From NCBI GenBank assembly GCA_040830765.1, contig JBFOMH010000017.1, positions 1 through 64,000 on the forward strand: 64,000 nucleotides of DNA, read 5' to 3'. How positions within the stretch are numbered: the stretch's first letter is position 1; each line of letters starts with the position of its first letter. Below the pieces are notes generated by a model. The model worked only from the letters and a program-made list of their open reading frames with translations. It made no database searches and was not told the DNA's origin. This document shows, piece after piece, positions 18,447 through 52,035 of this stretch. A program made the translations under genes and the position numbers. The DNA is from Puniceicoccaceae bacterium. GTDB taxonomy: Bacteria > Verrucomicrobiota > Verrucomicrobiia > Opitutales > Oceanipulchritudinaceae.

Positions 18447-18517
18447 TCTTGAAACCAATTTTTGAAATTCTACAGAAAGCGCTGGCGCTTATCCAATTCG
18501 CTTGTTGAAATGACTTT

Positions 18518-19486: not shown

Positions 19487-19572
19487 AAACTCTTTCGAGT
19501 GCTGGAATCTTATATGCAATATTTCTATAAAGAAGATTGCGAGTCCTGCTGACACTATCCTACTATTATGTC

Positions 19573-23679: not shown

Positions 23680-23690
23680 CGGCTGCAGGA

Positions 23691-24548
23691 TTAAGCTAAT
23701 CCTTCCTTGTCGTGCTCTTTGATCTTCCCTGCAATAGCCTCAGCAAAGTCATCTGCTTCATCTTCTCGGATTATTTCGTGTGCCACGGGCGTCTTGTGGA
23801 GAATGTTCAGTGCCCTATCGAACGCTGCTTTGCTGCGCTCAAGTTGTGGTTGTCCGACGAGATAGTAAACTTTAAACCTTTCCGAGGCGTTTTGAACCCG
23901 CATGACACGGCCCAGCCACAAACTAGCTTTATCCGTGATGCTCTGTGCCTGCTGCAAATCGAAGGAGACACTCTCCAAACAATGCCACTGCTTATTCTTC
24001 CAGGAGTGGCTGAACTCAATCTCATCGTCTTTAACTGAGATCGTTTTGGGCGCGAACCGTGAAAGAATTTTCCGTTCCTCAAACTCCTTTTTAAAGCTCT
24101 TCCAGATTTCATCATCAGTCCGGCTCACTACTTCCTTTTTGTCTTCGTACCGTTCAACCATTCGTTCAAAAAGACTTTCCAAGGTTGCTGCCGGGTCATG
24201 AGTAAGCCCGCTGCCGAGAGGGGACCACTGAAAGGAGCTATCGTCAGCCGCGATAGCGGTGAAAGCCAGTTCGTCCGCACGTTGTGGCATTCCTTGAAGC
24301 TTCAATTCTTCACGAAACCGTCCGGCAAGGTCACTGAAACGGACCTGAAGGTGTCGGATGACCGTGCGGTAGTGATCCCCATCAAGACCGTGAAACATTT
24401 TTGAGAGTCGGCTATACTTTGGGCTGAGAAGAGCGTCGGCATAACGAAGTTCGGGGCACAGCAACACCACGCCAACGTTGGCGAACTCGCCGGTCGTGGT
24501 ATCGTGGACATACCGCAGAATGGTATAGGTATAGGGTTGCTTATTCAT
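23691..24548 (-). CDS. DUF3037-domain protein
   Basis: YTILRYVHD..GEFANVGVVL N-terminus; coupled to the kinase gene. Confidence 0.8.
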   Translation of the reverse strand: MNKQPYTYTILRYVHDTTTGEFANVGVVLLCPELRYADALLSPKYSRLSKMFHGLDGDHYRTVIRHLQVRFSDLAGRFREELKLQGMPQRADELAFTAIAADDSSFQWSPLGSGLTHDPAATLESLFERMVERYEDKKEVVSRTDDEIWKSFKKEFEERKILSRFAPKTISVKDDEIEFSHSWKNKQWHCLESVSFDLQQAQSITDKASLWLGRVMRVQNASERFKVYYLVGQPQLERSKAAFDRALNILHKTPVAHEIIREDEADDFAEAIAGKIKEHDKEGLA

Positions 24549-25333
24549 AGGAGGACCTCCAATTGTGTTTTAATTGTGTCAAATTTATCGATGCATTCGA
24601 GCAGATAATCTCGAATGCCTGTGGGCGAAAATGTCGAGCTTTGCCATCCAGCTGGAATTGCTGCGATATAGGCATCAAGCCGCTCCTTCGTGATTGCTTC
24701 AAGAGCTCCCTGGAGACGATTCAGGTCCAGGCCTCCACCGTTAAGTACTCGGCGAAAAACGTGGTCGTTCAGAAATTTCAATGCTTCGGCATCCCAAGGA
24801 TTGGAAGGAAAGATAGTAAGAAACTGCGAAAACGCCGACTCATGATCGAATATCACGAAGTCATTTCCCAGGAAGGCACAGTTCGGATTGGATGCTCTTC
24901 TGTCGGGATTTTGGATTATGGCGTCAAAGGCGAGTATCTCACCTGCCGTCGGCCTCATGGCTTTGTTCAAAGTCTTGTCGCGTGGCCAAAGGGTCGTGCC
25001 TGGTTCCCATTTGGCCAACCCGAAATTCCATCCAACGCTTCCGACGAGGAAGGGACGGTATTCTGTTTGTGCTACCGTTGCAGCGAAACCTTGGGTCACC
25101 TCCACTCGGTAGGGCTGGGGGACGGGAAGATCGAGGTCCTGGGCAAGTAGCGCGGAAAAGGCTTCACATAGGAGCTTGAACGGTTGCATCTCAGGGCAGC
25201 CTGTCAGCTTCACAAGCAACTCCATTTCATTTCCTTCCCCATCTTCACAGGCAAGAAAACAAGGGCGTGTCCGACCCGATCCCATGACTTTGTCGAAGCG
25301 TGTAGCAATTACGGTTGGCATTAAATCACTCAT
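24545..25333 (-). CDS. HipA-like Ser/Thr kinase
   Basis: GSGRTRP, LVK, CEAFS..LA, FDAIIQNPDRRASNPN, IFDHESAF. Confidence 0.82.
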   Translation of the reverse strand: MSDLMPTVIATRFDKVMGSGRTRPCFLACEDGEGNEMELLVKLTGCPEMQPFKLLCEAFSALLAQDLDLPVPQPYRVEVTQGFAATVAQTEYRPFLVGSVGWNFGLAKWEPGTTLWPRDKTLNKAMRPTAGEILAFDAIIQNPDRRASNPNCAFLGNDFVIFDHESAFSQFLTIFPSNPWDAEALKFLNDHVFRRVLNGGGLDLNRLQGALEAITKERLDAYIAAIPAGWQSSTFSPTGIRDYLLECIDKFDTIKTQLEVLL

Positions 25334-26772
25334 GCTTCGGCTTCCTCCAGTTCATGTTCGATGGGATTGAGGTCTTTTGGATCTTCATCAGCTGAGGTCG
25401 ATGCATCGCAAGCGGCGGACCAGTCACCCTCGGGTACGTCTATGCCGCGCACGTCCACTTGGCCAGTGACGACATCTGCTACCAGTCGGGTGCGGTATTC
25501 CGTGATCAGCTCGATCTCCCGCTCTGCGCGTGCAATGGCCGCGTCAATTGTAGACGTCTTCATGGCGATGTGTGTAAGTATGGTGCGTTGCTCGTCGAGG
25601 GGTGGGAGCGGAATCCATAGATTCCAAATAACACCTTGTCCGATGTTTTGCATGGAGCTGCTTGCCCCGTTCGCAGACGATTCAATTTGAACACGACTTC
25701 CTTTGCTACGGATGGCAAGAACTATGAATTGTGGAATTGCTAAATCGGGGTTTGCTCTGAATCTGAACAATTTATCACAAAGTAGAATATTCGGTGCATT
25801 TTCAAGTGCCCTGGCCGCAAGTCCGAGAAGCTCACGAGTATTTGCTCGGCTCACAAGTATATCGTCTGTGGTTATTGCCAAAGACTTGTCCACTTTCGCT
25901 TCTAGCGAAACAGGAAGTTTCTTGTTCTGGGTCAGATCTAATACACCCGAATTCACGCACCCCACCTTTAGGACACCAAACTCCTCTCCAGTGGCAGGCT
26001 GCGCGTCACATTGCGGGGACCATCCCTGCTCGATTGGTGTGATGACTCTCTTTAACTTGATAGCTTCCCAATTTTCAGGGATATTTCCGAGCCACTCGAT
26101 GCCGGAGGGTTTGGTGGAGGCGTGGGGATCTAGTCCGCGTACGATTGCTTGGTGGATAAGGTTTTGCTTCTGTTCCTTGAGCAGGGAGATCAGTTGCCGT
26201 TTGTTGCTGATGAAGGTACCGATTTGCGATGTTTTCCAGTCCAGATATCGCGCAATTTGCTTCTGCTCAGCCAAGGGCGGAACACAAATCCCTATCAAGC
26301 GGAAATGCTCGGGGCGTAAGCTCCACATATCAGAAGTAATCCCATAAGACCAACGCTCGGCCTCCTTGGCGAAACTCGGGGTCCGAAAGAAATAGTGAAA
26401 ATACCGAGGGTGATTACCTCCCCGCAAACGCATAACTATGTAGGCGGGACTTATGATTCCACGAAATTTTGATACACCTAAGGCGCCCTGCCAAGCCCTC
26501 ATTTTATTATACGCCAAGTCCTCGGGCAAAACGAGTTTGTATTTTGTTTTATCGAGGTTCGAAGAATCCTTCTTCGATGTATCTGAGAGCAATTCGGATT
26601 GTTGGATGATGCCCCGGTTGATGGTAACTGAAAGCAACTGTTCTTCCGGGTGGTTCTGATCAACTATTTCGCGGAATACTGCACGATTGGGAACAGATCT
26701 CCAATGGCTCGGAATTTTCCCAAGCCAGGGTGTGCCGGATTTCTGATAGCTGGGATATCTAGGAAGAATCAT
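25330..26772 (-). CDS. hsdS: Type I R-M specificity subunit
   Basis: SGTPWLGKIPSHW / SGIEWLGNIPENW repeats, PPLAEQ / PPLDEQ, VVTGQVDVR. Confidence 0.95.
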   Translation of the reverse strand: MILPRYPSYQKSGTPWLGKIPSHWRSVPNRAVFREIVDQNHPEEQLLSVTINRGIIQQSELLSDTSKKDSSNLDKTKYKLVLPEDLAYNKMRAWQGALGVSKFRGIISPAYIVMRLRGGNHPRYFHYFFRTPSFAKEAERWSYGITSDMWSLRPEHFRLIGICVPPLAEQKQIARYLDWKTSQIGTFISNKRQLISLLKEQKQNLIHQAIVRGLDPHASTKPSGIEWLGNIPENWEAIKLKRVITPIEQGWSPQCDAQPATGEEFGVLKVGCVNSGVLDLTQNKKLPVSLEAKVDKSLAITTDDILVSRANTRELLGLAARALENAPNILLCDKLFRFRANPDLAIPQFIVLAIRSKGSRVQIESSANGASSSMQNIGQGVIWNLWIPLPPLDEQRTILTHIAMKTSTIDAAIARAEREIELITEYRTRLVADVVTGQVDVRGIDVPEGDWSAACDASTSADEDPKDLNPIEHELEEAEA

Positions 26773-27577
26773 GTGGTATGCCCTCCCACGCCCGTTTTAA
26801 CGCAGCCATCCAGTTTCCGGTGGAGCAGTGAGATCATCGTAAGATAGTCCGCCGCATCATCCTCGCCGCTCCAAAGAATCTTCGGGCCATGAGCCAAGGG
26901 GTTGCGGACCGCCCCGAAACAGCCCTTCAGCAGCATGGCAAAGCCCTTGTGCTCGGATTGCTCTGTCTCCGTTCGAAGGGTATTGAAGGCAAGTATCGGA
27001 CTGCTTATTGAGAAGACCTTGTCGACTAAGGTAGCACCGTCGCCTTCGACGCCGGCAAGCTCACGAATTCGTTGTGCCAATCCCTTGGTCGCCTCGAACA
27101 CGGCATGAAAATAGTTTTCCTGCATCAGTTCGGCACGGCAATATTTTAGCACCTCCGGATGCAATATTCTCCCGGAAAACTTTTTCCGAATAGTTCTAAC
27201 TCTCTGCTCGGCCTCATCGAGCGTGGTCGCAGCCGCTGTTTGCGTGAACTTGCCATTTGATCCATAATTCAATCCGACGAAGGCGAGAATAGTATTTAGT
27301 TTTTTGCGGTGTGCTTCAAATTCTTCAGCCCGACCAGCGAACCGTGCTGGTGTGAGAAAGGATTGGATGAAGTCTATGACTTTATTCGCACAATGATGAT
27401 CTTTTTGAGTTTGGAGAAAAACCCGGTACAGACGACGCCACTTAGTGGACTCGCCACTATTATCGACCAGGCCTCTATTCTCTAGAACACGGCTGATATC
27501 AGTCCCCGAACCGCATTCACCGAGAACCTTGGCCAGCCCTTCGATAGTTCCCTCGTTAAATGATTCGATGAGACTCA

Positions 27578-27578
<1 letters not shown>
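26769..27578 (-). CDS. TIGR02391 (Ymh-like) family protein
   Basis: LHPEV..NYFHAVFEATK, SEHKGF..GAVRNPLAH. Confidence 0.8.
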
Positions 27579-29704
<2,126 letters not shown>

Positions 29705-37827: not shown

Positions 37828-38328
37828 ATGATTGGGCTAAAAAGAGGAACATTAAAGTTGCTTCCCTATGATAAGCATTGGGAGAAAGAATATTTGTCCG
37901 AAGCAGCACGATTGGAATCAAACTTGGAAAATAACATTCTGCGAATTGCTCATATCGGAAGTACATCTATTCCAGGAATACGTTCTAAGCCCGTGATTGA
38001 TATCGCAATGGAGGTTGCAGACCTATCGCAAACACGAAAATTATTAGAAAAACTTGGATATGAGTATCTGGGGGATCGAAGATCCGACGGTGACCATTTT
38101 TTCGCGAAAGGTCCTGACGAAAATAGAACCCATTACATGCATGTTTCAACTATTGAGAATTCCCGATTCGACAAGTATGTAAGATTTCGAGATTCGCTGC
38201 GAAACAACAAAGATTTAGCACAAAAGTATGACCAACTTAAATCCGACCTAATGAACAAATATAAACAAGATCGAGAAAGATATACGGCAGCGAAATCAAA
38301 TTTTATTAATGAGGTTATTAGATCATGA
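37828..38328 (+). CDS. GrpB family nucleotidyltransferase-fold protein
   Basis: HIGSTSIPG..KPVIDI, FRDSLR, Y..LK, YT..K. Confidence 0.9.
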   Translation: MIGLKRGTLKLLPYDKHWEKEYLSEAARLESNLENNILRIAHIGSTSIPGIRSKPVIDIAMEVADLSQTRKLLEKLGYEYLGDRRSDGDHFFAKGPDENRTHYMHVSTIENSRFDKYVRFRDSLRNNKDLAQKYDQLKSDLMNKYKQDRERYTAAKSNFINEVIRS

Positions 38329-38384
38329 TCCAACCAGTCGATGTAGGTGTCGTACCTCAGCTTTAACTTTGTCCATCAAACACT

Positions 38385-38864
38385 ATGTTACCCGAAGTAC
38401 CTGAAGAAAAGAACTTAGTTCTAGTACAGGAGAGCCAGAAAGAATTCTGGCTTTATCCTCGGGCAGCTGAGAATTGGATAAAAATGCAAAAAACCGCGAG
38501 AGAAGAAGGAATCGTTCTAAAGATTATCTCAGCTTATCGAAGCATTGAGCGTCAGGAAAAGATCGTGGAGGCTAAAAGAAAAAAGGGGTTATCGGAGGAA
38601 GAGATTTTTCGATTCAGCGCACCACCTGGCTTCAGTGAACACCATTCTGGACGAGCAATAGACATTACTACTGATGGAGTGACTCCTCTGGAAGAAGAGT
38701 TTGAAAAAACCAAAGCGTTTAAGTGGCTAACGCAAAACGCTAGCAGGTTCTCATTTAGGATGAGCTATCCCAGAAAAAATGAATACGGTTTGGGGTACGA
38801 ACCTTGGCATTGGGTATACTTTGAATTAACACAACCAGTTACCGAAAATGACGATCCCTATTGA
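38385..38864 (+). CDS. M15 D-Ala-D-Ala carboxypeptidase (VanY-like)
   Basis: SAYRS..RQ, APPGFSEHHSGRAID, YEPWHW. Confidence 0.9.
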   Translation: MLPEVPEEKNLVLVQESQKEFWLYPRAAENWIKMQKTAREEGIVLKIISAYRSIERQEKIVEAKRKKGLSEEEIFRFSAPPGFSEHHSGRAIDITTDGVTPLEEEFEKTKAFKWLTQNASRFSFRMSYPRKNEYGLGYEPWHWVYFELTQPVTENDDPY

Positions 38865-38899
38865 AGTCGACCGGCACTTTAGACTTAACGGTATCTAAA

Positions 38900-39523
38900 A
38901 TGAATCAGAGAGATCTATCCATTGAAATCACCAACGCACTGATCGCTTCAGCTGCGTTTGAAACAGTAGAATTAAGGGGAAGTCTTAACGGCGGAAAGAT
39001 CGATTCATTCTCCGACATAGATATCGAGGTTTCGAACAACCAGCGAGCCGCGACAGACAACGTCCATGTAGCCATAGAGGTCTTAAGGGAAAGGAAAAAG
39101 ATATTACTAATCGATTGGGCTACATCACTTCTTCCGGATCAAAGCATAGCGTCGATCTACTTGTCAGGATATTCGGTTTTCTGGAACGTGGACATATCGT
39201 GTAGAGCCAATCAACACGTCAAGGCTCCGGAAAATGCAATCATACAAGAGAAGAATGGTCATATATTGAAGCTCTGGATACTAAATGCTAAGTACGTTCT
39301 AAGATCCAATACTGAAAAATGCACCTTAGACGGACTTTTTAGGAGATTATTCCCTGAAGAAAATTTATCCGGCACCCAACAAGCGAAGCTAATTCGGATT
39401 TGGAGAAGTATAGATCGCGAAGCAATAGATTCAGAGCTGGTCGATCAATGCGAAGATCTGATCGAAGAACATGGCTGGAATGAATGCTTCGATAACCAGG
39501 CGAGCGAGGCTACTGCCTATTGA
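38900..39523 (+). CDS. Nucleotidyltransferase-domain protein
   Basis: LRGSL..IDSFSDIDI motif. Confidence 0.65.
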   Translation: MNQRDLSIEITNALIASAAFETVELRGSLNGGKIDSFSDIDIEVSNNQRAATDNVHVAIEVLRERKKILLIDWATSLLPDQSIASIYLSGYSVFWNVDISCRANQHVKAPENAIIQEKNGHILKLWILNAKYVLRSNTEKCTLDGLFRRLFPEENLSGTQQAKLIRIWRSIDREAIDSELVDQCEDLIEEHGWNECFDNQASEATAY

Positions 39524-39539
39524 CGGTATGCTACAAAAG

Positions 39540-40208
39540 ATGAACAGTGAAAAGATCTCCGAAGAGTATTGGAGTAAGATTCCGCACGAGAACCTTCCTC
39601 ATTTTGCAAGTAAGGAAAAGACCCAGGCCGAAGTAGCGTTTCTCAAAAAGTATTTACCTGTAAACTCGCGTGTTCTTGATCTAGGCTGCGGGTGGGGGCG
39701 AGTTGCTGCTGCCTTAGCGTACGAGGGTTATTCTGTAAGAGGGATTGATTTGTCACCACATCTTGTGGAACTCGCTCGCAAAAATGCTCCTCAAGAATTA
39801 AAGATTTCATACTCGACTGGCAGTCTGTTAGACATCCCTTGCCGCGACAGCTCCTTCGATTGTGTTGTTTGCCTGTGGGGAACATTTAATCACTTGCTTT
39901 CTCCTGATGAACAACTCACAGGATTGAACGAGATCTTTCGCGTGTTGTGCTTAGGTGGAGTCGCCATCCTTGAGATGAGCAACGGAGAATCGAAAGCAAA
40001 TAGAATTAATCGCCAGAAACTGGGGTTTGGTCATCAGAACCGTGTATTCGAATTACGTTACAAGCCTAAGAGTCCACCCAATACGATTTACATTCACGAT
40101 AGAAAGACCCTTGATGGGCTAGGGCATGCTTCTGATTTCTTAGACTATTCCGTAGGATTCAAAACTATCTTTGGAAAGAGAAGGCTTGTAGCTTTTCTCA
40201 AGAAATAG
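39540..40208 (+). CDS. Class I SAM-dependent methyltransferase
   Basis: VLDLGCGWG, GIDLS, SFDCVV. Confidence 0.88.
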   Translation: MNSEKISEEYWSKIPHENLPHFASKEKTQAEVAFLKKYLPVNSRVLDLGCGWGRVAAALAYEGYSVRGIDLSPHLVELARKNAPQELKISYSTGSLLDIPCRDSSFDCVVCLWGTFNHLLSPDEQLTGLNEIFRVLCLGGVAILEMSNGESKANRINRQKLGFGHQNRVFELRYKPKSPPNTIYIHDRKTLDGLGHASDFLDYSVGFKTIFGKRRLVAFLKK

Positions 40209-40264
40209 GTATAACCAGTCGCTGATGTCGCTCGTATCGGCCCTTCAGTTTTAACGTCAATAAA

Positions 40265-40918
40265 ATGAATAGCCCCTTAAGCAGTTCACTTGAAAACATG
40301 TATTGGATTGGTGGAACCAGTGGTTCCGCGAAATCCACCATCGCACGCCGAATAGCTGCAGAACATGACATGCTCTTATATTCCACAGATGAGGTTATGG
40401 GAAATCATGCGAATCGTTGTACTAGGGAGGAATGCCCATTACTGGAAGAATTCAAGCAGATGACGATGGATGAGCGGTGGGCAACTCGCACACCGGAAGC
40501 CATGTTCGAAACCTTCCAATGGTTTCATGGTGAAGGATTTAATCTCATAATCGAAGATTTGCTCGAATTACCCAGTGACCGGAAAGTAATCGTTGAGGGA
40601 TTTCGATTGCTTCCAAATCTCGTGAAGCCCCTGCTCAAAAAAACATGCCAGGCAGTGTGGCTTATTTCTACTCCGGAATTCCGATTCAAGGCGTTCAATG
40701 AACGGGGCACGCTACGCGATATCCCGGACAAGACATCAAATCCTGAGAAAGCGCTTCAGAACCACCTGGAGCGGGAGTCTCTGTTTATGCAGCATCTCAT
40801 TGAAGAGACGAGGACTGAAGGTGTCACGGCCTTAACGGTTGATGGGAGTTTTTCAGAAGAAGAGTTACTGAAAAGAGTTTCTACACATTTTGAAATAGGA
40901 CAACCAAACAAAGCTTAA
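40265..40918 (+). CDS. P-loop small-molecule kinase-like protein
   Basis: WIGGTSGSAKST, YSTD, IVEG. Confidence 0.7.
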   Translation: MNSPLSSSLENMYWIGGTSGSAKSTIARRIAAEHDMLLYSTDEVMGNHANRCTREECPLLEEFKQMTMDERWATRTPEAMFETFQWFHGEGFNLIIEDLLELPSDRKVIVEGFRLLPNLVKPLLKKTCQAVWLISTPEFRFKAFNERGTLRDIPDKTSNPEKALQNHLERESLFMQHLIEETRTEGVTALTVDGSFSEEELLKRVSTHFEIGQPNKA

Positions 40919-40980
40919 ACAAAACCACGCCGGTCATCCGATAGTGTCATGTCCAACATTAACTTACTGAATAATAATCA

Positions 40981-41451
40981 ATGAAAAAGGAGTATCCGAC
41001 ATTAATTCACGAAAGAGTTGCTCTTGCCAGGGAGGGAAAGAACAAAACTGTAATCGCCAGAGTTCCTTCTGGCTGGGTTGTTCTGGGTGATGATCAAAGA
41101 TTAAAAGGTTATTCTCTGCTTCTCTCTGATCCCGTCGCCGACAATTTGAACGACTTGGGTGAAGAAGAAAGAAAGCAGTTTATGTGGGATATGTCCGCCG
41201 TTGGGGATTCTCTGATGACTGTGTTAAATCCATCGATTATCAATTATTCAATTTTAGGCAACTTGGACAGGGCGTTGCATGTTCACATTCATCCCCGATA
41301 TGATGAAGAGGAGGAGGATAAGAGAAGAAACACTCCACTGGTATATTGGTGGCTGAAAATGCCAGTTATACCTTTTGATTTCGAAAGAGACTCAAGTTTA
41401 ATGAAGCAGATCAAGGAAGAGCTTTCGAAGAGAACAACGATTATTTCATGA
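40981..41451 (+). CDS. HIT family hydrolase
   Basis: INYSILGN..LHVHIHPRY. Confidence 0.85.
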   Translation: MKKEYPTLIHERVALAREGKNKTVIARVPSGWVVLGDDQRLKGYSLLLSDPVADNLNDLGEEERKQFMWDMSAVGDSLMTVLNPSIINYSILGNLDRALHVHIHPRYDEEEEDKRRNTPLVYWWLKMPVIPFDFERDSSLMKQIKEELSKRTTIIS

Positions 41452-41978
41452 AAATATTGGATAAAGTTGGCTTGTTTATAGCATCTGGCGGCAGTGGTGA
41501 TCCCAACTCGCCAAAAATAAAATGCTTGTCGAATGTTGCAGTGCAGAAAGGTATTGAATACATCCTCCCTGATTGGCGTTACTTGCCCTGTGACCCAGAG
41601 CCTAGATTGAAAGACTTAGAGGAGAGAACTGATCAGAAATTTGAAAGTCTAGTATTAGCTGGATCGAGCTTAGGCGGCTATGTTTGTTCCGTTTACGCAC
41701 ATAAGAGAAAAGTTGATGGACTATTCCTCCTAACCCCTATCCTCGGTAAAGACGGCTACAAGGATGACTCTCCAAAACCGATGTCCGAAGATACGGTTAT
41801 AATAGCAGCCTCAGAGGATGAATACACAAACGCCAAAGATGTAATCGCGTTTGCAAAAACAATTAATGCATCTCTGCACCTGCTATCGGGCAACCATTCT
41901 TTAGAGAATCATTCAGAATTCATAGCTCGTGAATTCGGTGCATTTATTGATAGAATTAAAAGCAGGAAAACCTTTTAA
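41448..41978 (+). CDS. Alpha/beta hydrolase
   Basis: LAGSSLGG, D and GNHSL triad candidates. Confidence 0.8.
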   Translation: MKILDKVGLFIASGGSGDPNSPKIKCLSNVAVQKGIEYILPDWRYLPCDPEPRLKDLEERTDQKFESLVLAGSSLGGYVCSVYAHKRKVDGLFLLTPILGKDGYKDDSPKPMSEDTVIIAASEDEYTNAKDVIAFAKTINASLHLLSGNHSLENHSEFIAREFGAFIDRIKSRKTF

Positions 41979-42156
41979 ATATAAATGAAGCCCCTCACTA
42001 AAGCTCTCTCAGGTTGATTTCTCGATTCAAGAACAAAGTGTAGTTATGCATTCGCGACAGAAAGACGGATTAGATCTTTAATTTTGTCGCCGATCTGCCA
42101 GAGTGATAACATGGGAACGGACCCCATAGTTAAGAACTCCAACAGAAAGGAAAATC

Positions 42157-42621
42157 ATGGATAAACTATACTGGATCGTATGCGAGGAGGGTGATCAGAC
42201 ACTGTTCGAAGGTCGCTTCCTCGGAAGGACGCGGGGAGCAGCACTCAAGCACATGAAAGAGCAATTGGGCCGGTCGAATTTGATCGGCCTTGTTTTTTCA
42301 ATCACTGAGATCCCTGTTCCTCTAATTAGGGATATCGTGAATGAGATTTTGGCGGAGCAGTTGCCCAAACAGATGAATGCAGTTCAAGTGGAGCCGAAGG
42401 AGGAACCTGAGGAGGAACAGGTTGAATTGGAGATCGAGCCGAATCCCTTCATGAATCCGCAACCCCGACCTGAATATGACTGGGAAGCGATCAAGGCATG
42501 CTACATGCAGGGGTGGGGTCCGAAGGGTGTAGCCAGGAAGATGGAGGTCCCGATAAATACTCTAAGAGGACGGATCCGCAGGGAATGCTGGGCGCACGAG
42601 CGCCGGGAGGTGGATGCATGA
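42157..42621 (+). CDS. Hypothetical protein with C-terminal HTH
   Basis: SD agaaagg; DWEAIKACY..GPKGVARKMEVPINTLRGRIRRECW. Confidence 0.6.
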   Translation: MDKLYWIVCEEGDQTLFEGRFLGRTRGAALKHMKEQLGRSNLIGLVFSITEIPVPLIRDIVNEILAEQLPKQMNAVQVEPKEEPEEEQVELEIEPNPFMNPQPRPEYDWEAIKACYMQGWGPKGVARKMEVPINTLRGRIRRECWAHERREVDA

Positions 42622-43070
42622 GAATCTATGAGGCATCCCTGAAATACAAACTCGTTAAATCAGGCCCGCTCACGGTGGTAGACTCCCCGGAGCGGGTTTT
42701 TAACTATATGGAGGGAGCGTTTGATCCTGATCCCACAGTGGAATGGTTCTTTGTGATACCCCTGAACCGCAAGAACCGGGCACTTGGCAGGGTTGCCATC
42801 ACGAAGGGAACGGCCACCGCATCACTTGTTCATCCGCGGGAAGTGTACCGGCCAGCGGTTCTTTGCAATGCATCATCCCTGATTGCTGTCCACAATCATC
42901 CCAGTGGCGATCCGTCACCCAGTCAGGCTGATATCCGGGCCACGAGACAACTGAGGGAAGCGGCGAAGGTGATGCAGATTGATCTTCTTGATCACGTGAT
43001 TATCGGGGAAAAGGATGCCGATCCCATGGGAAGTGGTTACTACTCATTTGCAGAAGCGGGATTACTGTGA
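42618..43070 (+). CDS. RadC-like JAB domain protein
   Basis: VHPREVY, HNHPSGDPSPSQAD, LLDHVIIG. Confidence 0.92.
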   Translation: MRIYEASLKYKLVKSGPLTVVDSPERVFNYMEGAFDPDPTVEWFFVIPLNRKNRALGRVAITKGTATASLVHPREVYRPAVLCNASSLIAVHNHPSGDPSPSQADIRATRQLREAAKVMQIDLLDHVIIGEKDADPMGSGYYSFAEAGLL

Positions 43071-43080
43071 GGAGAGCCAA

Positions 43081-43103
43081 TTGACACTCACTCCTCGCAC
43101 ATG
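43081..43103 (+). promoter_or_regulatory. First copy of the late-gene element TTGACA-N13/14-(A/G)TG (12 sites, see findings)
   Basis: ttgaca-ctcactcctcgcac-atg; recurs at 45669, 46391, 49577, 49858, 51272, 51941, 52850, 53467, 56027, 57532, 60970. Confidence 0.85.
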
Positions 43104-43751
43104 AGTGAAACTGAATCAGTGAAAGCCAAGGGCCTGGCCGATGGAATTGAAGTATGGTGTGGTTATGAAAAGCTGGTTCCGGTTGAGGATTTAAAGGCCA
43201 ATCCGCGTAATCCGAATACGCACCCGGTCCGCCAAATTGAACTGCTCGCCAAGAATATTCGATATTTTGGATGGCGCCACCCGATTTCTGTTTCCAGGCG
43301 AAGCGGATTGATTGTGGCCGGCCATGGCAGATTGGAAGCGGCCAAGCATTTGAACCTGCAGCTGGTGCCTGTGGATTATCAGAACTTCGCGAGCGAGAAT
43401 GATGAAATGGCGGTATTGATTGCCGACAACCGTTTGGCAGAACTTGCCAGTGTGGATCTCAATTCACTTGAAGGCGTGATCAACGATTTGAAGGTGGAGG
43501 GATTTGATACGCTGCTGACCGGTTTTGAAGACGCCGATTTGGACAGCCTGCTTTCGCCGGACAATTCAAATGAGGTGCTGGAGGAAGAAGATGGAGAGCT
43601 GGAGAAAGGCGACGTCACGATCACTTTGGGTTTGTATCGTTGGAAGGTCAGCCAGGAGGATTACCTCGCTTGGATTGATTCGGTGAAGCAGGAAGTCGGC
43701 TTCGATAAGGAATCGGTGATGAGGGAATTGAGAAAGCGACTGGGTGTATGA
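43101..43751 (+). CDS. ParB/Srx N-terminal domain protein
   Basis: NPRNPNTHP, FGWRHPI, IVAGHGRLEAA, IADNRLAE. Confidence 0.88.
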   Translation: MSETESVKAKGLADGIEVWCGYEKLVPVEDLKANPRNPNTHPVRQIELLAKNIRYFGWRHPISVSRRSGLIVAGHGRLEAAKHLNLQLVPVDYQNFASENDEMAVLIADNRLAELASVDLNSLEGVINDLKVEGFDTLLTGFEDADLDSLLSPDNSNEVLEEEDGELEKGDVTITLGLYRWKVSQEDYLAWIDSVKQEVGFDKESVMRELRKRLGV

Positions 43752-45259
43752 TCAAGCTTGAGCCATTAGAAGCTGTCGCCCCGTCGACCTACAATCCGCG
43801 CAGCGCGGATCCTCAGCGTCTGGACCTGATTGAGCTTTCGTTAAGGAAACTTGGATTTCTGGCTCCGATCTTTGCCGACGAAAATGGGGAGATTCTTTCC
43901 GGTCACCAGCGACATCTCGTCGCCACCCGGATGGGAGCGAAGCATCTACCGGTATTCCGTACCCGCCCCATGGGGCTCCCTCAAAGAAAGGCGCTGAACA
44001 TCGTTTTCAACCGGGCAACCAATGACTTTGATTGGAACAGTACACCGGAGAAATCCACCCGGGAACTTGCATCACTGGATGTGCATCGCCTTGCGGAATC
44101 GATTTCCGATAAGGCTGTGGATTCCCCCGAATTTATCCGCTGTCTGACTCCGAATCAGGTGAGTGTGAAGGAGCTCTGCCGGACCAATTCCGGAAAGTGG
44201 AAGCAGTATGCGAAGAATCTGGCGAAGACCCTGCATCGAAACGGAATTCTCATGCCGATTATCTGCAAGAGAGATGGTACGGTGATCAATGGTATCGGGC
44301 GCCTTGAAATGCTCGCTGAAAAGAAGATCGAGAATGCTCCTGTCGTATATGTATCGGAAGAGGAGGCAGCTTTCGCAGAAGCGATGATGAACCTGCTTTC
44401 CATGGATTTCGATGTTGAGAGCCGCTATGATGATCTTCTGCGGTATAATTCATTCAGGCGTGCCCGCCGGGTGCGGGAGGAACTGGGCAATGGATTCATA
44501 TTCGCTGTCCACGGGGCAAAGCCTTGCTACACATTTGATATTTTCAATCCGAAGCAGAAGGCAAAGTGGCTGAGGGAACACGGTAATCGCATACTTGATT
44601 TCGGTGCCGGGCACTTGACGGAGACCAAGATTCTCCGCCGGGCGGGAATGGAAGTGTGTGCCTTTGAACCCTATCATATTACGCGATCGGATATTGATAA
44701 GGAGAAGAGTCTTGAGATATGCAGGGAGTTTATTGAAGCAGTTCGAGAAGGCAGAGAGTGGACTTCCATCTTTCTGGCCAGTGTCTTGAACTCGGTACCG
44801 TTCCAGACGGATCGGGAACACATTGCGGTGCTCCTGCAGGCGCTTTGCAGACCGGAAACAAAAGTCTATGCCTGTGCTTCGAGTGTGAGTGAAACCGGTT
44901 GGAGGCAGGTGAATGGGAAGGCATTTTTAAACAAGTCCAATTCAGCGAACATCGCATTCCGGTTGGATTATGAAACGGGAATCAGGATTGGTGATTTCCA
45001 GGACAAGCCGAAGGTGCAGAAGTACCATACGATAAAAGAATTCCATCAGCTATGGACTCCGTTTTTCCGCTCTGTTAGGGTGCGTGAAATGAGTAATAAC
45101 ATTACCGCTACATGCGCACATGCACTACCTGTCGATAAGGAACGGTTGAGGGCGGCAATTGAATTTGAATTTGATCTACCGTATCCGGATGGAACCCGGA
45201 TGGATATGGTTGAGGAAGCAATCGAAGCATTTGAAAAACGATTGGGTGTTAAACTGTGA
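43748..45259 (+). CDS. Double ParB-domain protein fused to a Rossmann methyltransferase-like domain
   Basis: YNPR..GFLAPI..ILSGHQR; second GILMPII..VINGIGR; ILDFGAGH, AFEPY, LASVLNSVPF. Confidence 0.75.
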   Translation: MIKLEPLEAVAPSTYNPRSADPQRLDLIELSLRKLGFLAPIFADENGEILSGHQRHLVATRMGAKHLPVFRTRPMGLPQRKALNIVFNRATNDFDWNSTPEKSTRELASLDVHRLAESISDKAVDSPEFIRCLTPNQVSVKELCRTNSGKWKQYAKNLAKTLHRNGILMPIICKRDGTVINGIGRLEMLAEKKIENAPVVYVSEEEAAFAEAMMNLLSMDFDVESRYDDLLRYNSFRRARRVREELGNGFIFAVHGAKPCYTFDIFNPKQKAKWLREHGNRILDFGAGHLTETKILRRAGMEVCAFEPYHITRSDIDKEKSLEICREFIEAVREGREWTSIFLASVLNSVPFQTDREHIAVLLQALCRPETKVYACASSVSETGWRQVNGKAFLNKSNSANIAFRLDYETGIRIGDFQDKPKVQKYHTIKEFHQLWTPFFRSVRVREMSNNITATCAHALPVDKERLRAAIEFEFDLPYPDGTRMDMVEEAIEAFEKRLGVKL

Positions 45260-45672
45260 TATATCTATTGGATTTAAACTACACGCTGGTTGGGAATTCC
45301 CCAAGAAGGGGAGATCCACCTATCCGGCCATTCATCAGGCAGATCGAGCAAGAAGAGTACCGCCAGTGGTTGGTTGAACTATTGAGGCCTCACAAGGTGA
45401 TTTTAATTACCGCCCGACCGGACCGGTACAGGGAAGTGACCTTGGAGCGTATAAAGGAAAAGACGGGCTGGGAACCGGTGGATGCTTACTTCGCACAAAT
45501 ACAGGCACGACCTCCCCAGATTAAGGAGCACCTTTTGAAAACGCACATCTTCCCAAAGTATGGGAATAATGGATACTTTGCACTTGAGAGTAATCCGTAC
45601 ACTAGGGAGATGTATAAAGGATATGGCATAGAGGCGGTCCGGGTGACGGATCAGGAACTGATGAAATGTTGA
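45256..45672 (+). CDS. HAD-like (PNKP-type) phosphatase-fold protein
   Basis: LLDLNYTLV, LITARP, K, ALESN; degenerate motifs I and IV. Confidence 0.6.
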   Translation: MIYLLDLNYTLVGNSPRRGDPPIRPFIRQIEQEEYRQWLVELLRPHKVILITARPDRYREVTLERIKEKTGWEPVDAYFAQIQARPPQIKEHLLKTHIFPKYGNNGYFALESNPYTREMYKGYGIEAVRVTDQELMKC

Positions 45673-45688
45673 CACTGACTTAACCGGC

Positions 45689-46384
45689 ATGGACGCCGGA
45701 CAGGGGATCGAGACATCGCGCAGCAACTGGGTATTCGACGAAAAGGTCGCACCGAAGTTTGATGAGCATGTGAGAAAAAGCGTTCCCGACTATGATCGGA
45801 TCCAGGATCTGGCAGCAAGTCTTTCTGACTGGTTTGTGAAGGACGGAGGAACCGTTGTGGATCTGGGGGCATCAACCGGTGAAACACTTCATCGCATTCA
45901 AAAACGCAACCCGGCAAAGAAGATCGAGGTTATTGGTTACGACAATTCCAGTGCGATGATCCAGCAGGCGAAGGCAAAGGGAGTGGATGTGCATTTTTGC
46001 GATCTCTCCATGCTTACTGAAATGCGGGGTCACGATTACGGGGTATCGCTCTACACGCTCCAATTTCTGCGCCCGGGAGCCAAGCAGACGGTGCTTTCAG
46101 TATGCTATGATTCATTGAAGCGGGGCGGGGGATTTTTCGTTGTTGAGAAAGTCCATGGAAGCATTCCGGAATTCCAGGACATCACCCAGCAGCTGTACTG
46201 GGAAATGAAACTTGAAAATGGCCTTACACCAAAGGAAGTCCTGAACAAGGCGGCCGCATTGAGGGGCAATATGTTCCCCATGACAGTGGCGGAGAATGAG
46301 GCACTTTTCAGGCGCGTCGGCTTCGTTCGGTATGAGCTTGTATACCGCCATCTGCAATTTGCCGGTTGGCTCCTAATGAAGTAG
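45689..46384 (+). CDS. CmoA-like (carboxy-SAM synthase family) SAM-dependent enzyme
   Basis: WVFDEKVA.KFDEHVRKSVPDY, DLGASTG, DNS..M, YTLQFL, VEK, MKLENG..EV.NK. Confidence 0.8.
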   Translation: MDAGQGIETSRSNWVFDEKVAPKFDEHVRKSVPDYDRIQDLAASLSDWFVKDGGTVVDLGASTGETLHRIQKRNPAKKIEVIGYDNSSAMIQQAKAKGVDVHFCDLSMLTEMRGHDYGVSLYTLQFLRPGAKQTVLSVCYDSLKRGGGFFVVEKVHGSIPEFQDITQQLYWEMKLENGLTPKEVLNKAAALRGNMFPMTVAENEALFRRVGFVRYELVYRHLQFAGWLLMK

Positions 46385-46410
46385 CGGACATTGACACATG
46401 AATCCGGTGC

Positions 46411-47025
46411 ATGGACAACCTGACACCGGATACGGCAACCAAGATTCTCGACGCCGATTTTCAGAACATAGTGAAAAAAGTCGCGGGAGGGAAGACGCTT
46501 ACTGTTGCCGAGAGGGCACTGATTGAGGCACGGGCCTCCGGGAGTAATAACACAACGGCCTATGCCAAGACTGTTGTGGAATTATCTGAGGTACTGGGAG
46601 TAACCAGGCGGACGGTCGGCATGTGGCGCAAAATGCAGGGAGCACCAAAACCACTGTCCAACGGCGACCATGATGTTTCCGCATGGAGAGAGTTTGTCCG
46701 GTTAAACGGCCTGAAAGGCGGCAAGGAACTGGAGGGAGCCAACCATGAGGCCCTAAAGGCAAGGCGGCTACTTGTCGATATTGAGGAACGGGAACTTCGC
46801 CTGGCTATAAAGAGGGGAGACTACCTGCCCATGGAAGAGGTGAGACGGACTGTGATTGAGGGGATGGCACGGCTCTTCGCCATCTTACACAAACGACTCG
46901 AGGACGAATTGCCACCACTGTCCTGTGGAAAGGATGCAGTGGGTATCCGGGAGGAGAATGCCAAGGCTTTGGATGAGGCCCGGCAGGAGGCATATGAATT
47001 TTTCAGCGGATGGACCACAGCTTAA
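46411..47025 (+). CDS. Terminase small subunit
   Basis: HTH (ELSEVLGVTRRTVGMW..GAP), coiled coil ELRLAIKRGDYLP; overlaps the large subunit. Confidence 0.75.
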   Translation: MDNLTPDTATKILDADFQNIVKKVAGGKTLTVAERALIEARASGSNNTTAYAKTVVELSEVLGVTRRTVGMWRKMQGAPKPLSNGDHDVSAWREFVRLNGLKGGKELEGANHEALKARRLLVDIEERELRLAIKRGDYLPMEEVRRTVIEGMARLFAILHKRLEDELPPLSCGKDAVGIREENAKALDEARQEAYEFFSGWTTA

Positions 47026-48818
47026 ATCCTGAAATTGCCGGCATGTTTGCCGAAGGGGTAAAACCTCCGGACAGGCGTCCTCCATGGCAGTGGGCTGAGG
47101 AGCATGTTACTTCCATCCCATATTCGCCTATGCCCGGACGGTTCCGCTCGGACAATTCACCGTGGGTTAGGGAGGTAATGGAGGCGATGGTGGATCCGCG
47201 GGTGAAAGTGGTGTCCATTATCGCATCTGTCCAATCCTCAAAGACGACCGCTCCGGAGCTGACCCTCTCTTACATCATATCCAACTTGCCCGGGCCCACC
47301 TTGTGGCTGGACCAGACTGACGAGGATGCGAAGGACCAGTCCGAGTCGCGCCTGCAAAAACTCTTCGAGGAATGTGAACCGGTTAAAAACTTGTATCCAA
47401 AAGACCGGCACAAAAGGAGAAACCATACTATCCACTTTGCCAATGGAATGACGCTCTGGATCCTTGGGGCACATAACAAAACCAATCTGCAACGCCGTTC
47501 CATTCGCTGGTTGATCGGTGATGAAACGTGGCGCTGGCCAACAGGACATATGGCTGAGGCGGAAGCCCGTGTAACTGCTTTCGGATGGCTGGGTAAATGC
47601 ATCTTCATGTCCCAGGGCGGTGAGGAAGATGATGATACGCATCGCAAATTTGAGACGACTGACATGCGCGAATGGACTTTCCAGTGTCCACATTGTGGAA
47701 AGCGTCAGCCCTTCGACTGGGATAATGTGGAGTGGTCCAAATCGGCAAGAACAGCGGAAGGGGATTGGGATTTCACTGAAGTGAGGAAAACCACTTCGCT
47801 TCGGTGTTGTGAGTGTAACCATTACTTTGCTGATTCGGATGCGACCCGCCGCCAGCTCAATGCCACGGGCAAGTTTGTGCGGACCAACCCGAAGGCATCT
47901 GAAGAGAATGTGGGATTTCATTGGAATGCCCTGTGCGCAATGTCGTGGGGGAAACTTGCGGAGATGTACCTTCGGGCCAAGGCAGCAGCAAGGCAGGGCG
48001 ACACATCCTTGTTGCAGCAGTTTTATCAGAAGCGACTCGCATTGCCCTGGAGGGAGTATGTTGAGGACTTCAAGGCGGATATTACCCGTAGCAACTATTG
48101 CATGGGGGATCCATGGCCGGATGAGGGGTATCTGACGGCAAAAGGCACGGTTGTGGATTCACCCACCGATGGTGCCACGGTTGTCCCGCTTCGATTCCTT
48201 TCAGTGGATGTGCAGATGGATCACTTCTGGTTGGTGGTCCGTGCCTGGAGTGCCAGCGGATCCTCAAGGCTAATGTGGTGCGAGCGTGCCCTCACATGGG
48301 AGGACGTTGAGCGGGTACAGGAACGCTTTGGTGTCCACGGCAGCTTGGTATTTGTGGATGCAGGATACAACAGCTATGAGGTATACCGCCACTGTGCCCG
48401 AAAGGGCTGGACTGCCCTAATGGGGGATAACCGTCCAACTTTCACCCACAAGGTAGGAAAACAAAGGGTTCAACGCTTCTACTCTCCGGTGCGGAAGGTC
48501 TATGTAGCCAATGGACAGGTTTGCCGGATGCACTATTGGAGCAATCTGAACATGAAGGATTCGCTCGCCAGGCTGCGGAGGAATCTGGAAGGCGGACCTA
48601 CATGGGAGATCCCCGAAGACATCCCCGAAGAGTACCTGCTTCATATGGACTCAGAGCACCGGATTAAGAGGGGCGGTAAATGGTTCTGGGATCAGATCGG
48701 CAAACGCCCGAACCACATGTTTGATGCGGAGTGCGAGCAGGTTGTCGGAGCCCATATGCTTAAGATTATTGGGCGCGAAAGTGTGCCTCAATCAGGAGAA
48801 TCCGATCCCGAAGGATAA
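47010..48818 (+). CDS. Terminase large subunit, lambda GpA family
   Basis: PPWQWAE, SVQSSKT, IGDE, CPHC..C.EC, GFH, SVDVQ, VDAGY, NHMFD. Confidence 0.92.
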   Translation: MDHSLNPEIAGMFAEGVKPPDRRPPWQWAEEHVTSIPYSPMPGRFRSDNSPWVREVMEAMVDPRVKVVSIIASVQSSKTTAPELTLSYIISNLPGPTLWLDQTDEDAKDQSESRLQKLFEECEPVKNLYPKDRHKRRNHTIHFANGMTLWILGAHNKTNLQRRSIRWLIGDETWRWPTGHMAEAEARVTAFGWLGKCIFMSQGGEEDDDTHRKFETTDMREWTFQCPHCGKRQPFDWDNVEWSKSARTAEGDWDFTEVRKTTSLRCCECNHYFADSDATRRQLNATGKFVRTNPKASEENVGFHWNALCAMSWGKLAEMYLRAKAAARQGDTSLLQQFYQKRLALPWREYVEDFKADITRSNYCMGDPWPDEGYLTAKGTVVDSPTDGATVVPLRFLSVDVQMDHFWLVVRAWSASGSSRLMWCERALTWEDVERVQERFGVHGSLVFVDAGYNSYEVYRHCARKGWTALMGDNRPTFTHKVGKQRVQRFYSPVRKVYVANGQVCRMHYWSNLNMKDSLARLRRNLEGGPTWEIPEDIPEEYLLHMDSEHRIKRGGKWFWDQIGKRPNHMFDAECEQVVGAHMLKIIGRESVPQSGESDPEG

Positions 48819-49051
48819 ATCGTGGGATTCCCTGTTTGCATCAATAATCCTGAAACAAACGGTTCATTATGGGATTTGGTTACCTCCCTTCTTGGCATAG
48901 ATTGAAGGTTATCATGTAGGTATGGGGAATTATCCAGAATGTAGGCATCTTCTGGAAGTATTGCTTGGATTGCTGCGGCTCCAAGTACCGTATATGTAAT
49001 ATACTTTTTCATAGTACTGGGAGTTACACTTATTCAGTGATTTAGGGAATA

Positions 49052-49561
49052 GTGAGACCTGAATTTTTTCTTTCTATTAATCGCGTCTCTTTATACTCTG
49101 TATTCATGGGATCCGACTTACAAGTACAGGCAGGAGCAATTATTGGTGGAACCATTGTTGATCCAACATGGATAGATTACACTTTTTGTGAGAATGAATC
49201 ACAATTTTCCGAGGTTCTTGGGTTCGTTATTAAGATCACAAATATATCCAATTCAAAACTGATCATTGATAACATATATTTTGTATTTAGTACTCATTCT
49301 CAAGAAGACGAACGGTTACCCGTTTATAGCAACAGATCTTTTTCTAGGCCAAACAAACTTCCTTCAACACAACATCCATGTATTACCTCGACCTATGAGT
49401 GCGGAATAAAGGATATCCCGCCCATAGCAGGTAATGCCATAGGGATATTAATCGCATACAAGAGTTGGCTGAATCCCTTTAAGGTTTTTCAATTCCATTT
49501 ACACCGTGACAATGACTTTCGGTTATTTACTGGAGCCTTGAAGGAAAGGTATTCGAGCTAA
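49052..49561 (+). CDS. Hypothetical AT-rich moron
   Basis: ORF within a low-GC insert between terL and the head genes; start uncertain. Confidence 0.45.
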   Translation: MRPEFFLSINRVSLYSVFMGSDLQVQAGAIIGGTIVDPTWIDYTFCENESQFSEVLGFVIKITNISNSKLIIDNIYFVFSTHSQEDERLPVYSNRSFSRPNKLPSTQHPCITSTYECGIKDIPPIAGNAIGILIAYKSWLNPFKVFQFHLHRDNDFRLFTGALKERYSS

Positions 49562-51965: not shown

Positions 51966-52035
51966 ACGAGGGAGAAAAGGATTCGGTCGGGCTCATAACC
52001 CGGCAACGCAGGTTCGATTCCTGCCCCTCGTCCCA
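51966..52035 (+). tRNA. Atypical tRNA-Met(CAT), initiator-like anticodon arm, miniature D-arm
   Basis: ACGAGGG/CCCTCGT acceptor stem, TCGGG-CTCATAA-CCCGG, GCAGG-TTCGATT-CCTGC, C73 then CCA. Confidence 0.85.

Follow-up and report, generated by a model that had tools for sequence, protein, structure and literature searches.

Here we describe a four-gene module in a prophage of a Puniceicoccaceae bacterium, located at 43101..46384 of a 64,000-nucleotide stretch of contig JBFOMH010000017.1 (hereafter, the window). Directly ahead of the terminase genes, the module encodes, in order, a stand-alone ParB-N-like protein (ParB1), a fusion of two ParB-N-like domains to a methyltransferase fold (ParB2MT), a HAD-fold protein and a CmoA-family protein. 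On balance, we lean towards reading it as a DNA modification system that depends on carboxy-S-adenosylmethionine (Cx-SAM), employing a new family of transferases, represented by ParB2MT. Cx-SAM was formerly known from tRNA wobble modification and two natural-product pathways, to which one phage DNA modification, made by a C5-methyltransferase homologue, was added in December 2025; the module suggests that phages recruited it a second time, with an unrelated transferase.

All four open reading frames (ORFs) lie on the plus strand and are of family-typical full length (216, 503, 138 and 231 amino acids). Consecutive genes overlap by 4 nucleotides at the first two junctions, and a gap of 16 nucleotides precedes the fourth, which confirms the arrangement given in a preliminary description of this DNA: four tightly packed genes with a CmoA-like gene last. 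The operon structure is read from the gene overlaps alone, since a scan for promoters and terminators across 41500-49500 returned fewer sites than shuffled sequences, or no more.

The last gene (45689..46384) encodes the 231-residue CmoA-family protein, a probable Cx-SAM synthase. It matches TIGR00740 (NF011995) over residues 12-226 (E 1e-34), phrog_4752 (E 2.9e-59) and, in the Protein Data Bank (PDB), Escherichia coli CmoA (4gek, E 3.1e-22) and Haemophilus influenzae YecO (1im8, E 4.1e-19). Arg199 of the E. coli enzyme is said, in structure papers of 2013, to hold the carboxyl group. As had been noticed from the sequence beforehand, Q-K-R199 of E. coli CmoA aligns here with N186-K187-A188, and an arginine (R192) follows four residues on, a single helical turn away, at the position of E. 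coli Glu203. The same shift is present in SpCmoA of Synechococcus phage S-B43, the aligned motifs being 'QKRSMLEN' in E. coli, 'NKAAALRG' in the window protein and 'DKEKELRD' in SpCmoA; in sequence alignment SpCmoA has glutamate at 199 and arginine at 203, the window protein alanine and arginine, and both keep Lys198 (K187 here). SpCmoA is reported to be a Cx-SAM synthase by liquid chromatography-mass spectrometry, with a kcat of 2.33 s-1, above that of the E. coli enzyme (PMC12783734). Like the window protein (120.3 bits), SpCmoA (115.6 bits) scores under the NCBIfam equivalog cut-off for TIGR00740 (193.3 bits). Because the shifted arginine and the sub-threshold score both occur in a proven synthase, Cx-SAM is the likely product of the window protein, and we hold its predicted activity as a Cx-SAM synthase to be highly probable.

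We examined the linkage between the CmoA-family gene and the transferase gene in two sets of loci. Using the CmoA-family protein as query, we retrieved 19 loci from IMG/VR, while the transferase query gave 80 genome loci and 79 new viral loci (159). Six-frame ORFs were scanned with hidden Markov models built from our own alignments, and loci with at least 2 kb of downstream sequence were counted (61 genome, 75 viral). Of the 61 genome loci, 58 have a CmoA-family ORF next to the transferase gene: in 56 it follows downstream within 4.5 kb, with the strand unchanged, and in L102 and L103 it lies just upstream. All 75 viral loci have it beside the transferase as well. The preliminary description had proposed such a gene-neighbourhood survey, naming a CmoA-like gene not conserved with the transferase as the outcome that would speak against it; the gene proved to be conserved. 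Among the 19 loci found with the CmoA query, the transferase lies upstream in 10, 6 have too little upstream sequence, L008 and L009 lack it in the 0.9-1.4 kb present, and L019 carries a CmoY-CmoX pair instead. The HAD-like gene directly follows the transferase in every viral locus (75 of 75) and in 55 genome loci of the 61, and nearly all related loci have ParB1 immediately upstream of the transferase.

No CmoA-family ORF is adjacent in three of the 61 genome loci (L030, L032 and L090). In L030 and L032, opposite-strand genes come right after the HAD gene, and both look like truncated remnants. In L090 the terminase directly follows, and a bona fide CmoA (241.7 bits, over the cut-off) is encoded elsewhere in the genome; this single case fits a phage that would rely on host Cx-SAM. 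E. coli CmoA is reported to supply Cx-SAM for SpCmoX, the transferase of phage S-B43 (PMC12783734).

The records of these loci name Verrucomicrobiota, Cyanobacteriota, Pseudomonadota, Planctomycetota, Chloroflexota, Sumerlaeota, Rhodothermota and Bdellovibrionota as phyla, and a Gordonia phage adds Actinomycetota (at least nine). Across the loci, identity to the window falls to 22-25% for the large terminase and to 48% for the transferase. The module was also present in cultured phages, in 14 of 50,697 records and in three lineages. Gordonia phage Evaa encodes a ParB protein, the transferase (44% identity), a 'phosphatase' that is a homologue of the HAD-like protein (hhalign probability 99.8%), a CmoA-like protein (105 bits) and the terminase; the other carriers are Aeromonas phage HJ05 and Pseudomonas phage SM1 with eleven relatives, HJ05 and SM1 being without the HAD gene. 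On the evidence of gene order, the cluster recurs far beyond chance and the CmoA-like gene and ParB2MT are a conserved functional pair.

In some relatives, genes are inserted between the HAD-like gene and the CmoA gene: toxin-antitoxin pairs, a WG-repeat protein and proteins without assigned function, with no further modification enzymes among them. The toxin-antitoxin genes (a HigB-like toxin with a helix-turn-helix protein; a Phd/YefM antitoxin) are at L010:1149-1807 and L016:4276-4584. Toxin-antitoxin and other genes also separate the module from the terminase in relatives. For the coupling to packaging suggested earlier, gene position is the one link.

A role for the prophage gene in tRNA modification was addressed in the host assembly (3.99 Mb, 96.9% complete). 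This assembly encodes no other CmoA, and its best match to CmoB scored 34.6 bits against a cut-off of 275; with the host lacking a CmoA or CmoB of its own, the prophage cmoA-like gene is not part of the tRNA 5-carboxymethoxyuridine (cmo5U) pathway. The module and the E. coli CmoA/CmoB pathway (4gek, 4QNV) have in common the CmoA fold and family and the logic of a Cx-SAM synthase working with a class I transferase, but they differ in that no CmoB is present in host or prophage, the transferase shares motif I only, and Arg199 has moved by four residues. The whole assembly also held no match to the C5-methyltransferase family PF00145, nor was there one among the 61+8 ORFs of the window. Because no other Cx-SAM user (C5 methyltransferase or CmoB) was found in the assembly, ParB2MT is the candidate for this role, and, provided that the CmoA-like protein makes Cx-SAM, it is likely to be the enzyme that uses it.

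The closest described system is that of phage S-B43, in which CmoA, CmoX and CmoY make 5-carboxymethylcytosine and its glycine amide (Yang et al., Nat Commun 2025, December 2025; PMC12783734); ParBc proteins are said there to accompany CmoX systems. Both systems place a phage CmoA with a shifted arginine beside a methyltransferase-fold enzyme and a ParB-domain protein, without CmoB. The window module differs, however, in having no C5-methyltransferase homologue, amide ligase, SPPC motif or motif-X arginine (an Asn-synthase-type ligase is absent from the window), and in having a double-ParB fusion to a generic class I fold and an additional PNKP-type HAD protein. Searches of the 159 transferase loci by tblastn with SpCmoX and the CmoX of L019 revealed no CmoX next to the transferase; a single weak match (L092, 30% over 110 amino acids) lies ~3.6 kb upstream, and SpCmoY had no match in these loci. 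As related in their report, a preliminary search by the S-B43 authors gave no candidates for N6-adenine or N4-cytosine carboxymethyltransferases tied to CmoA (PMC12783734). In the literature covered, supplementary tables being outside its scope, there was no description of a ParB-ParB-methyltransferase paired with CmoA. The novelty proposed at first for a DNA carboxymethylation system holds in part: what is new here is a transferase family of no characterised kind and its PNKP-like HAD partner, whereas a phage Cx-SAM synthase feeding a DNA transferase, and with it phage DNA carboxymethylation, is already known (PMC12783734).

Locus L019 connects the two systems. This IMG/VR fragment (1-5185) encodes a ParB protein, an Asn-synthase-like CmoY, a C5 methyltransferase, a CmoA and the small and large terminase subunits. 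Its CmoA is 50% identical to that of the window (E 2e-84), its CmoY is 41% identical to SpCmoY, and its C5 methyltransferase, which carries the SPPC motif and the equivalent of Arg350, shares 36% identity with SpCmoX (E 7e-65). Its terminase is the least similar among the 19 IMG/VR loci from the CmoA query. The same CmoA subtype therefore feeds a cassette of the published type at the same genomic position, and, as far as gene content tells, L019 shows cassette exchange at one genomic slot.

ParB2MT (43748..45259, 503 amino acids), the proposed carboxymethyl transferase, corresponds over its full length to phrog_5475 (E 4.1e-104), a family of unknown function in PHROGs. At E≤1e-3 it has 1039 homologues, nearly all of ~503 amino acids; an apparent insertion or intein in homologues with a match of ~2.09 kb proved to be an artefact, ParB1 and the transferase having been joined into one match. 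The methyltransferase domain alone gave 361 clusters at 50% identity, and most of the 150 listed among them are proteins of ~500 amino acids with the domain at ~220-505, so the domain is largely confined to the ParB2MT architecture. The AlphaFold2 (AF2) model (mean predicted local distance difference test (pLDDT) score 87.0, predicted template modelling score 0.78) comprises two ParB-N-like domains, a class I (Rossmann) methyltransferase-fold domain (residues ~220-461; 44405..45130), which in Pfam matches Methyltransf_23 at E 0.0015, below its cut-off, and a C-terminal helical tail (residues 462-503; 45131..45256) with helices at 464-474 and 488-499.

Alignment of 31 family members identified invariant residues in the methyltransferase domain, namely DFGAGH (284-289), FEP (306-308), SVLNSVPF (345-352), D355-R356, Y408-E409, K422, Q424 and H427, and in the tail motif FEFxLPYP (F473, E474, F475, L477, P478, Y479 and P480). 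Motif I (LDFGAG) had been singled out beforehand as being followed by SVLNSVPF in place of the PCQ of C5 methyltransferases or a DPPY/NPPY motif, and this was upheld: the motif after strand 4 is SVLNSVPF and not a (D/N/S)PP(Y/F) motif IV, and ParB2MT matches no Pfam DNA-methyltransferase family, PF01555 (N6_N4_Mtase) and PF00145 included. In NCBIfam it has no match to CmoB (TIGR00452), hhalign of the transferase family against a CmoA alignment recovered motif I only, and a sequence search of the PDB gave only weak ParB/Noc matches (E 0.04). Judged by these comparisons, ParB2MT is not a C5, N6/N4 or CmoB-type enzyme. Cytosine C5 is probably not the acceptor, because the methyltransferase domain lacks both the C5-methyltransferase fold and an invariant cysteine for catalysis.

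The ParB domains make DNA a plausible acceptor. The two labels of the preliminary description, ParB and ParB-ParB-methyltransferase, were sound: ParB1 (43101..43751, 216 amino acids) matches phrog_498 (E 1.2e-39) and phrog_620 (E 5.3e-36), and BLASTP pairs it with two stretches of ParB2MT, residues 3-126 (E 1e-6) and residues 158-201 (E 3e-4), making it homologous to both ParB domains. The first of these (residues ~1-118; 43748..44101) is matched by Pfam ParB_N at 6-69 and by phrog_620 and phrog_498 at 2-110, and the model at 1-93 superimposes on KorB (8qa8; Z 10.4, root mean square deviation (rmsd) 2.0 Å, 88 residues), with PadC (Z 10.1) and Noc as further matches. The second (residues ~130-218; 44135..44401) is matched by NCBIfam nucleoid_noc at 155-211 and contains an invariant NGIGRL at 181-186. 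ParB_N matches in Pfam are weak, at 24.4 bits (E 3e-05) for ParB1 and 22.9 bits for ParB2MT, under the cut-off of 26.3. The Box II arginine (GxxR) is retained as GHGR in ParB1 and as GHQR and GIGR in the two ParB2MT domains, and the glutamate of the canonical GERR is missing.

ParB1 and the first ParB domain are closest to the ParB domains fused to phage DNA methyltransferases (phrog_498); of ParB2MT, phrog_498 covers only residues 2-110. The window protein resembles these ParB_N and N6_N4_Mtase fusions, and the fusions of ParB-CTPase folds to Methyltransf_23, in being a prophage ParB-N-methyltransferase near packaging genes, but it has two ParB-N domains and a non-DPPY methyltransferase, and its gene is tied to CmoA. 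A survey of ParB-CTPase folds describes the Methyltransf_23 fusions as enriched in phages and prophages and as uncharacterised, and its main text has 0 occurrences of CmoA (PMC12704722). A further parallel comes from phage thymine dioxygenases, reported to be activated on double-stranded DNA by a stand-alone ParB (PMC13229309). There too, in the account given, a stand-alone ParB lies beside a post-replicative DNA-modifying enzyme, often near the terminase; the enzyme is an Fe/2-oxoglutarate dioxygenase there and has a methyltransferase fold here, and the window enzyme has two ParB domains of its own. Because of the phrog_498 kinship, the ParBc proteins of CmoX systems and the ParB-activated DNA dioxygenase, DNA is a plausible acceptor; should ParB2MT use Cx-SAM, we would expect with good confidence that it transfers the group to DNA. 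The narrower proposal made at the outset, a DNA base and possibly an exocyclic amine, gained no support.

Several observations weigh against DNA modification by Cx-SAM and bear on three other explanations. First, the methyltransferase domain resembles small-molecule and tRNA methyltransferases: its fold matches include METTL6 (Z 13.0, rmsd 3.5 Å, 197 residues), glycine N-methyltransferase (Z 11.8) and Trm9 (Z 11.2), and neither the Foldseek rows nor the best 50 rows from VIA-align for ParB2MT contained a DNA methyltransferase, which does not rule out a family outside those lists. It is conceivable, if unlikely, that ParB2MT uses Cx-SAM made by the CmoA-like protein to modify something other than DNA, be it tRNA or another RNA, a packaging or capsid protein, or a nucleotide or small molecule bound by the ParB domains. 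In keeping with this, ParB-CTPase folds are reported to bind CTP, ATP or GTP and to be fused to RNA-related domains as well (PMC12704722), the HAD protein encoded next to ParB2MT is similar to phosphatases of nucleotides and polynucleotides, and the prophage encodes a tRNA-Met. However, the fold Z-scores are tied among many unrelated class I enzymes and say little about substrate, and CmoB-like features are absent from the domain. In addition, ParB1 groups with the ParB domains of phage DNA methyltransferases, as does the first ParB domain of ParB2MT, and the module occupies the slot that in L019 holds the DNA-modifying CmoY-CmoX cassette.

Second, the transferase family does not display a recognisable site for the carboxyl group. 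The SVLNSVPF...DR stretch is what the Methyltransf_11/23/25 clan usually has after strand 4, and D355-R356 is not diagnostic of Cx-SAM; since the alignment to CmoA (4gek) shows the same post-strand-4 register, we do not read R356 as a carboxylate clamp. In hhalign, the family aligned with E. coli CmoB over 15 residues of motif I only (probability 19%), without a recognisable counterpart of the CmoB carboxylate-binding triad, given as Lys91/Tyr200/Arg315 (PMC4482062). In favour of Cx-SAM use, on the other hand, the Cx-SAM users listed in one account, CmoB, TglF, MccB(Bam)'s C-terminal domain and CmoX, have unrelated methyltransferase folds (PMC10491745).

Third, the CmoA subtype follows the transferase phylogeny. 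The tree comprised 86 rows (the window, all usable genome loci and a random 25 of the usable viral ones, leaving aside loci with no scorable CmoA), and on it the subtype changed 3 times, against a minimum of 2. As the subtype tracks the tree, the pair mostly co-diversifies and the raw locus counts overstate the number of independent events. A well-supported verrucomicrobial clade (52 rows) includes both canonical-Arg and shifted-Arg partners. In addition, SAM depletion is put forward by the S-B43 authors as a separate role that phage CmoA might have (PMC12783734).

Such co-inheritance, SAM depletion, the generic Methyltransf_23 signal in Pfam and the failure to assign a carboxylate-binding residue would all agree with ParB2MT being an ordinary SAM-dependent DNA or RNA methyltransferase, with the CmoA-like enzyme acting separately (as a SAM drain or as a source of Cx-SAM for another use) and both genes co-inherited as anti-defence cargo. 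We consider this improbable, given that the two genes are linked almost without exception, in different phyla and beside unrelated terminases, that the sole intact phage without its own CmoA (L090) resides in a genome with a true CmoA, that the window genome holds no other candidate user of Cx-SAM, and that in L019 the same CmoA subtype serves a Cx-SAM-using cassette type at the same position.

Fourth, not all CmoA partners retain the arginine. Of the 144 adjacent CmoA-family ORFs, 100 have the canonical K198-R199...E203, 17 have the shifted arginine and 27 have neither (4 of these being truncated there). The last group is mostly alphaproteobacterial, two representatives (one alphaproteobacterial, one from Vibrio) scored 46-65 bits on TIGR00740, and in these lineages the product may differ from Cx-SAM. 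Together with the off-position arginine and the sub-threshold score of the window protein, this third subtype, encoded beside related transferases, raises the question of whether the CmoA-like enzyme makes another SAM derivative, from which the transferase would move the corresponding group. This is very unlikely for the window module: the validated SpCmoA combines the shifted arginine with a sub-threshold score, the canonical-Arg CmoAs that make up most partners scored 153-178 bits in the six tested, and the 50%-identical CmoA of L019 pairs with a CmoX that has the Cx-SAM-binding arginine.

The loci whose CmoA has no arginine at either position are L066-L068, L070-L071, L073-L078, L080-L081, L083-L086, L091-L096, L098, L106 and L108, together with phages SM1 and HJ05. 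Their alpha- and gammaproteobacterial CmoA partners read, for example, K-E-L-S-L-G-G or K-T-K-A-L-A-G in this region and score 46-121 bits on TIGR00740.

The third gene (45256..45672, GTG start) encodes a 138-residue capless HAD-fold protein of the T4 Pnkp 3'-phosphatase type, known only as phrog_32036 (E 1.9e-33) and with 912 homologues. Sequence searches gave no Pfam family at E≤0.01 and nothing in the PDB, and its profile returned chance-level matches only. Its AF2 model (pLDDT 93.1) superimposes on the T4 Pnkp phosphatase (5uj0; Z 16.0, rmsd 2.2 Å, 123 residues; Foldseek E 2.7e-06) and on Pnkp1 (4xrp, Z 14.9), the next non-Pnkp entry having Z 12.1, and the nearest named Atlas clusters are HAD_PNKP (PF25109, score 0.94) and the T5 dNMPase family. 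The HAD assignment made beforehand is therefore right as to fold, but motif I reads D6-L-N8-Y-T10 in place of DxDxT. Across 30 aligned members, N8, T10, T52-A-R54-P, K90 and S112-N113-P114 are invariant and D6 is present in at least 90%; N8 occurs in 30 of 30, with histidine at this position in gp4 of Gordonia phage Evaa. E111-S112-N113 is kept in the family; motif IV would read E-S against D-D in T4, in a tentative register (hhalign to T4 Pnkp, probability 1.4%) that agrees with the fold alignment.

With T4 Pnkp (5uj0, 1ltq) and the phage HAD_PNKP family the protein shares the capless HAD fold, the nucleophile aspartate, the motif II threonine with an arginine two residues on (T52-A-R54 versus S-G-R) and the motif III lysine, but it has asparagine for the general-acid aspartate and no kinase domain. 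In HAD phosphatases, the residue two after the nucleophile is the general acid/base aspartate, and Asp167 and Asp278 of T4 Pnkp are essential. If these roles hold, the HAD-like protein falls outside the conventional Mg-dependent phosphatases; that it is so strictly conserved speaks for a real role, whether altered catalysis or ligand binding. As the gene is missing from gammaproteobacterial modules, the core reaction is independent of it. Complex prediction for ParB2MT and the HAD-like protein, both supplied as alignments, scored 0.00 in two runs and was uninformative either way.

A second, paralogous HAD-like gene (~50% identical) lies ~1 kb upstream of ParB1 in L048, L054, L056, L057, L060, L011, L013 and L018, which are phages of the Opitutales/Puniceicoccaceae type. 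Most of these eight loci have the transferase flanked by two HAD-like genes, L057 being without the downstream copy.

For the favoured Cx-SAM-dependent modification of DNA, we propose the following sequence of events. The CmoA-family protein would convert SAM and prephenate to Cx-SAM, as expected from homology to a validated enzyme. ParB2MT would bind Cx-SAM in its methyltransferase-fold domain and carboxymethylate phage DNA after replication, as gene linkage and cassette exchange suggest. Its two ParB-N domains, probably with ParB1, may hold or activate the enzyme on double-stranded DNA, for which the ParB-dependent phage thymine dioxygenases would be the precedent (PMC13229309). The PNKP-type HAD protein, without a general-acid aspartate, could be an accessory or second-step factor, and the mark would most likely guard the phage genome against host restriction. 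Taken one step further, the module could, tentatively, represent a second widespread route to DNA carboxymethylation, in which a ParB-loaded class I transferase modifies some site apart from cytosine C5 (a nitrogen, either in the ring or exocyclic, an oxygen or the phosphate backbone) and the HAD protein then reads or converts the adduct; this fuller proposal we regard as possible rather than probable.

If the acceptor is a new atom, the product would be a new natural modification of a DNA base or of the backbone, undescribed in any organism, and both the anti-restriction strategy and the enzyme, able to place a carboxyl handle on DNA, would be new as well. It is also a test case for the role of ParB-fold domains in DNA-modifying enzymes, and the cultured carriers (Evaa, SM1 and its kin, HJ05) make the question directly testable.

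The prophage extends from ~29.9 kb to the window end. Its replication genes (31-35 kb) are followed by low-GC cargo (37.8-42 kb), RadC (~42.6-43.1 kb), the four-gene module, the two terminase genes, portal, an S49 protease and the coat protein. The small terminase subunit (46411..47025, plus strand) matches phrog_57 (E 7.1e-08) and the large subunit (47010..48818, plus strand) is of the GpA type (Pfam GpA_ATPase, E 5e-38; GpA_nuclease, E 7.9e-20); both are context and lie outside the chemistry of the module. The tRNA-Met (CAT) gene is at 51966-52035, in the head-gene block, between the ORF after portal and the S49 protease gene.

The cargo block (37828-41978, 43% GC) encodes GrpB, a VanY-type D-Ala-D-Ala carboxypeptidase, a class I methyltransferase (39471-40208), an AAA_33 kinase-like protein and an alpha/beta hydrolase, and none of its genes is conserved in related phages. 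We considered the class I methyltransferase as a user of Cx-SAM and rejected it, as it belongs to the low-GC cargo and none of the related loci contains a counterpart.

Upstream of the prophage, a tRNA-Ser gene (12566-12656) ends a bacterial chromosome segment of ~59% GC, at which point the GC content drops from 59% to ~40%. The genes beyond, which include a NOV_C-domain protein, a DEAD/ResIII helicase (857 amino acids) and a DUF4268 protein, give 12566-19486 the appearance of a defence-type island with a tRNA gene as its integration site. An integrase gene (19537-20715) comes after these helicase and defence-like genes and directly adjoins a type I restriction-modification system on the minus strand (20716-29704; hsdR 20716-23679, hsdS 25330-26772, hsdM 27578-29704), in which DUF3037, HipA-like kinase and Hypoth_Ymh genes are interleaved. 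This restriction-modification system may belong to the cargo of either the island or the prophage.

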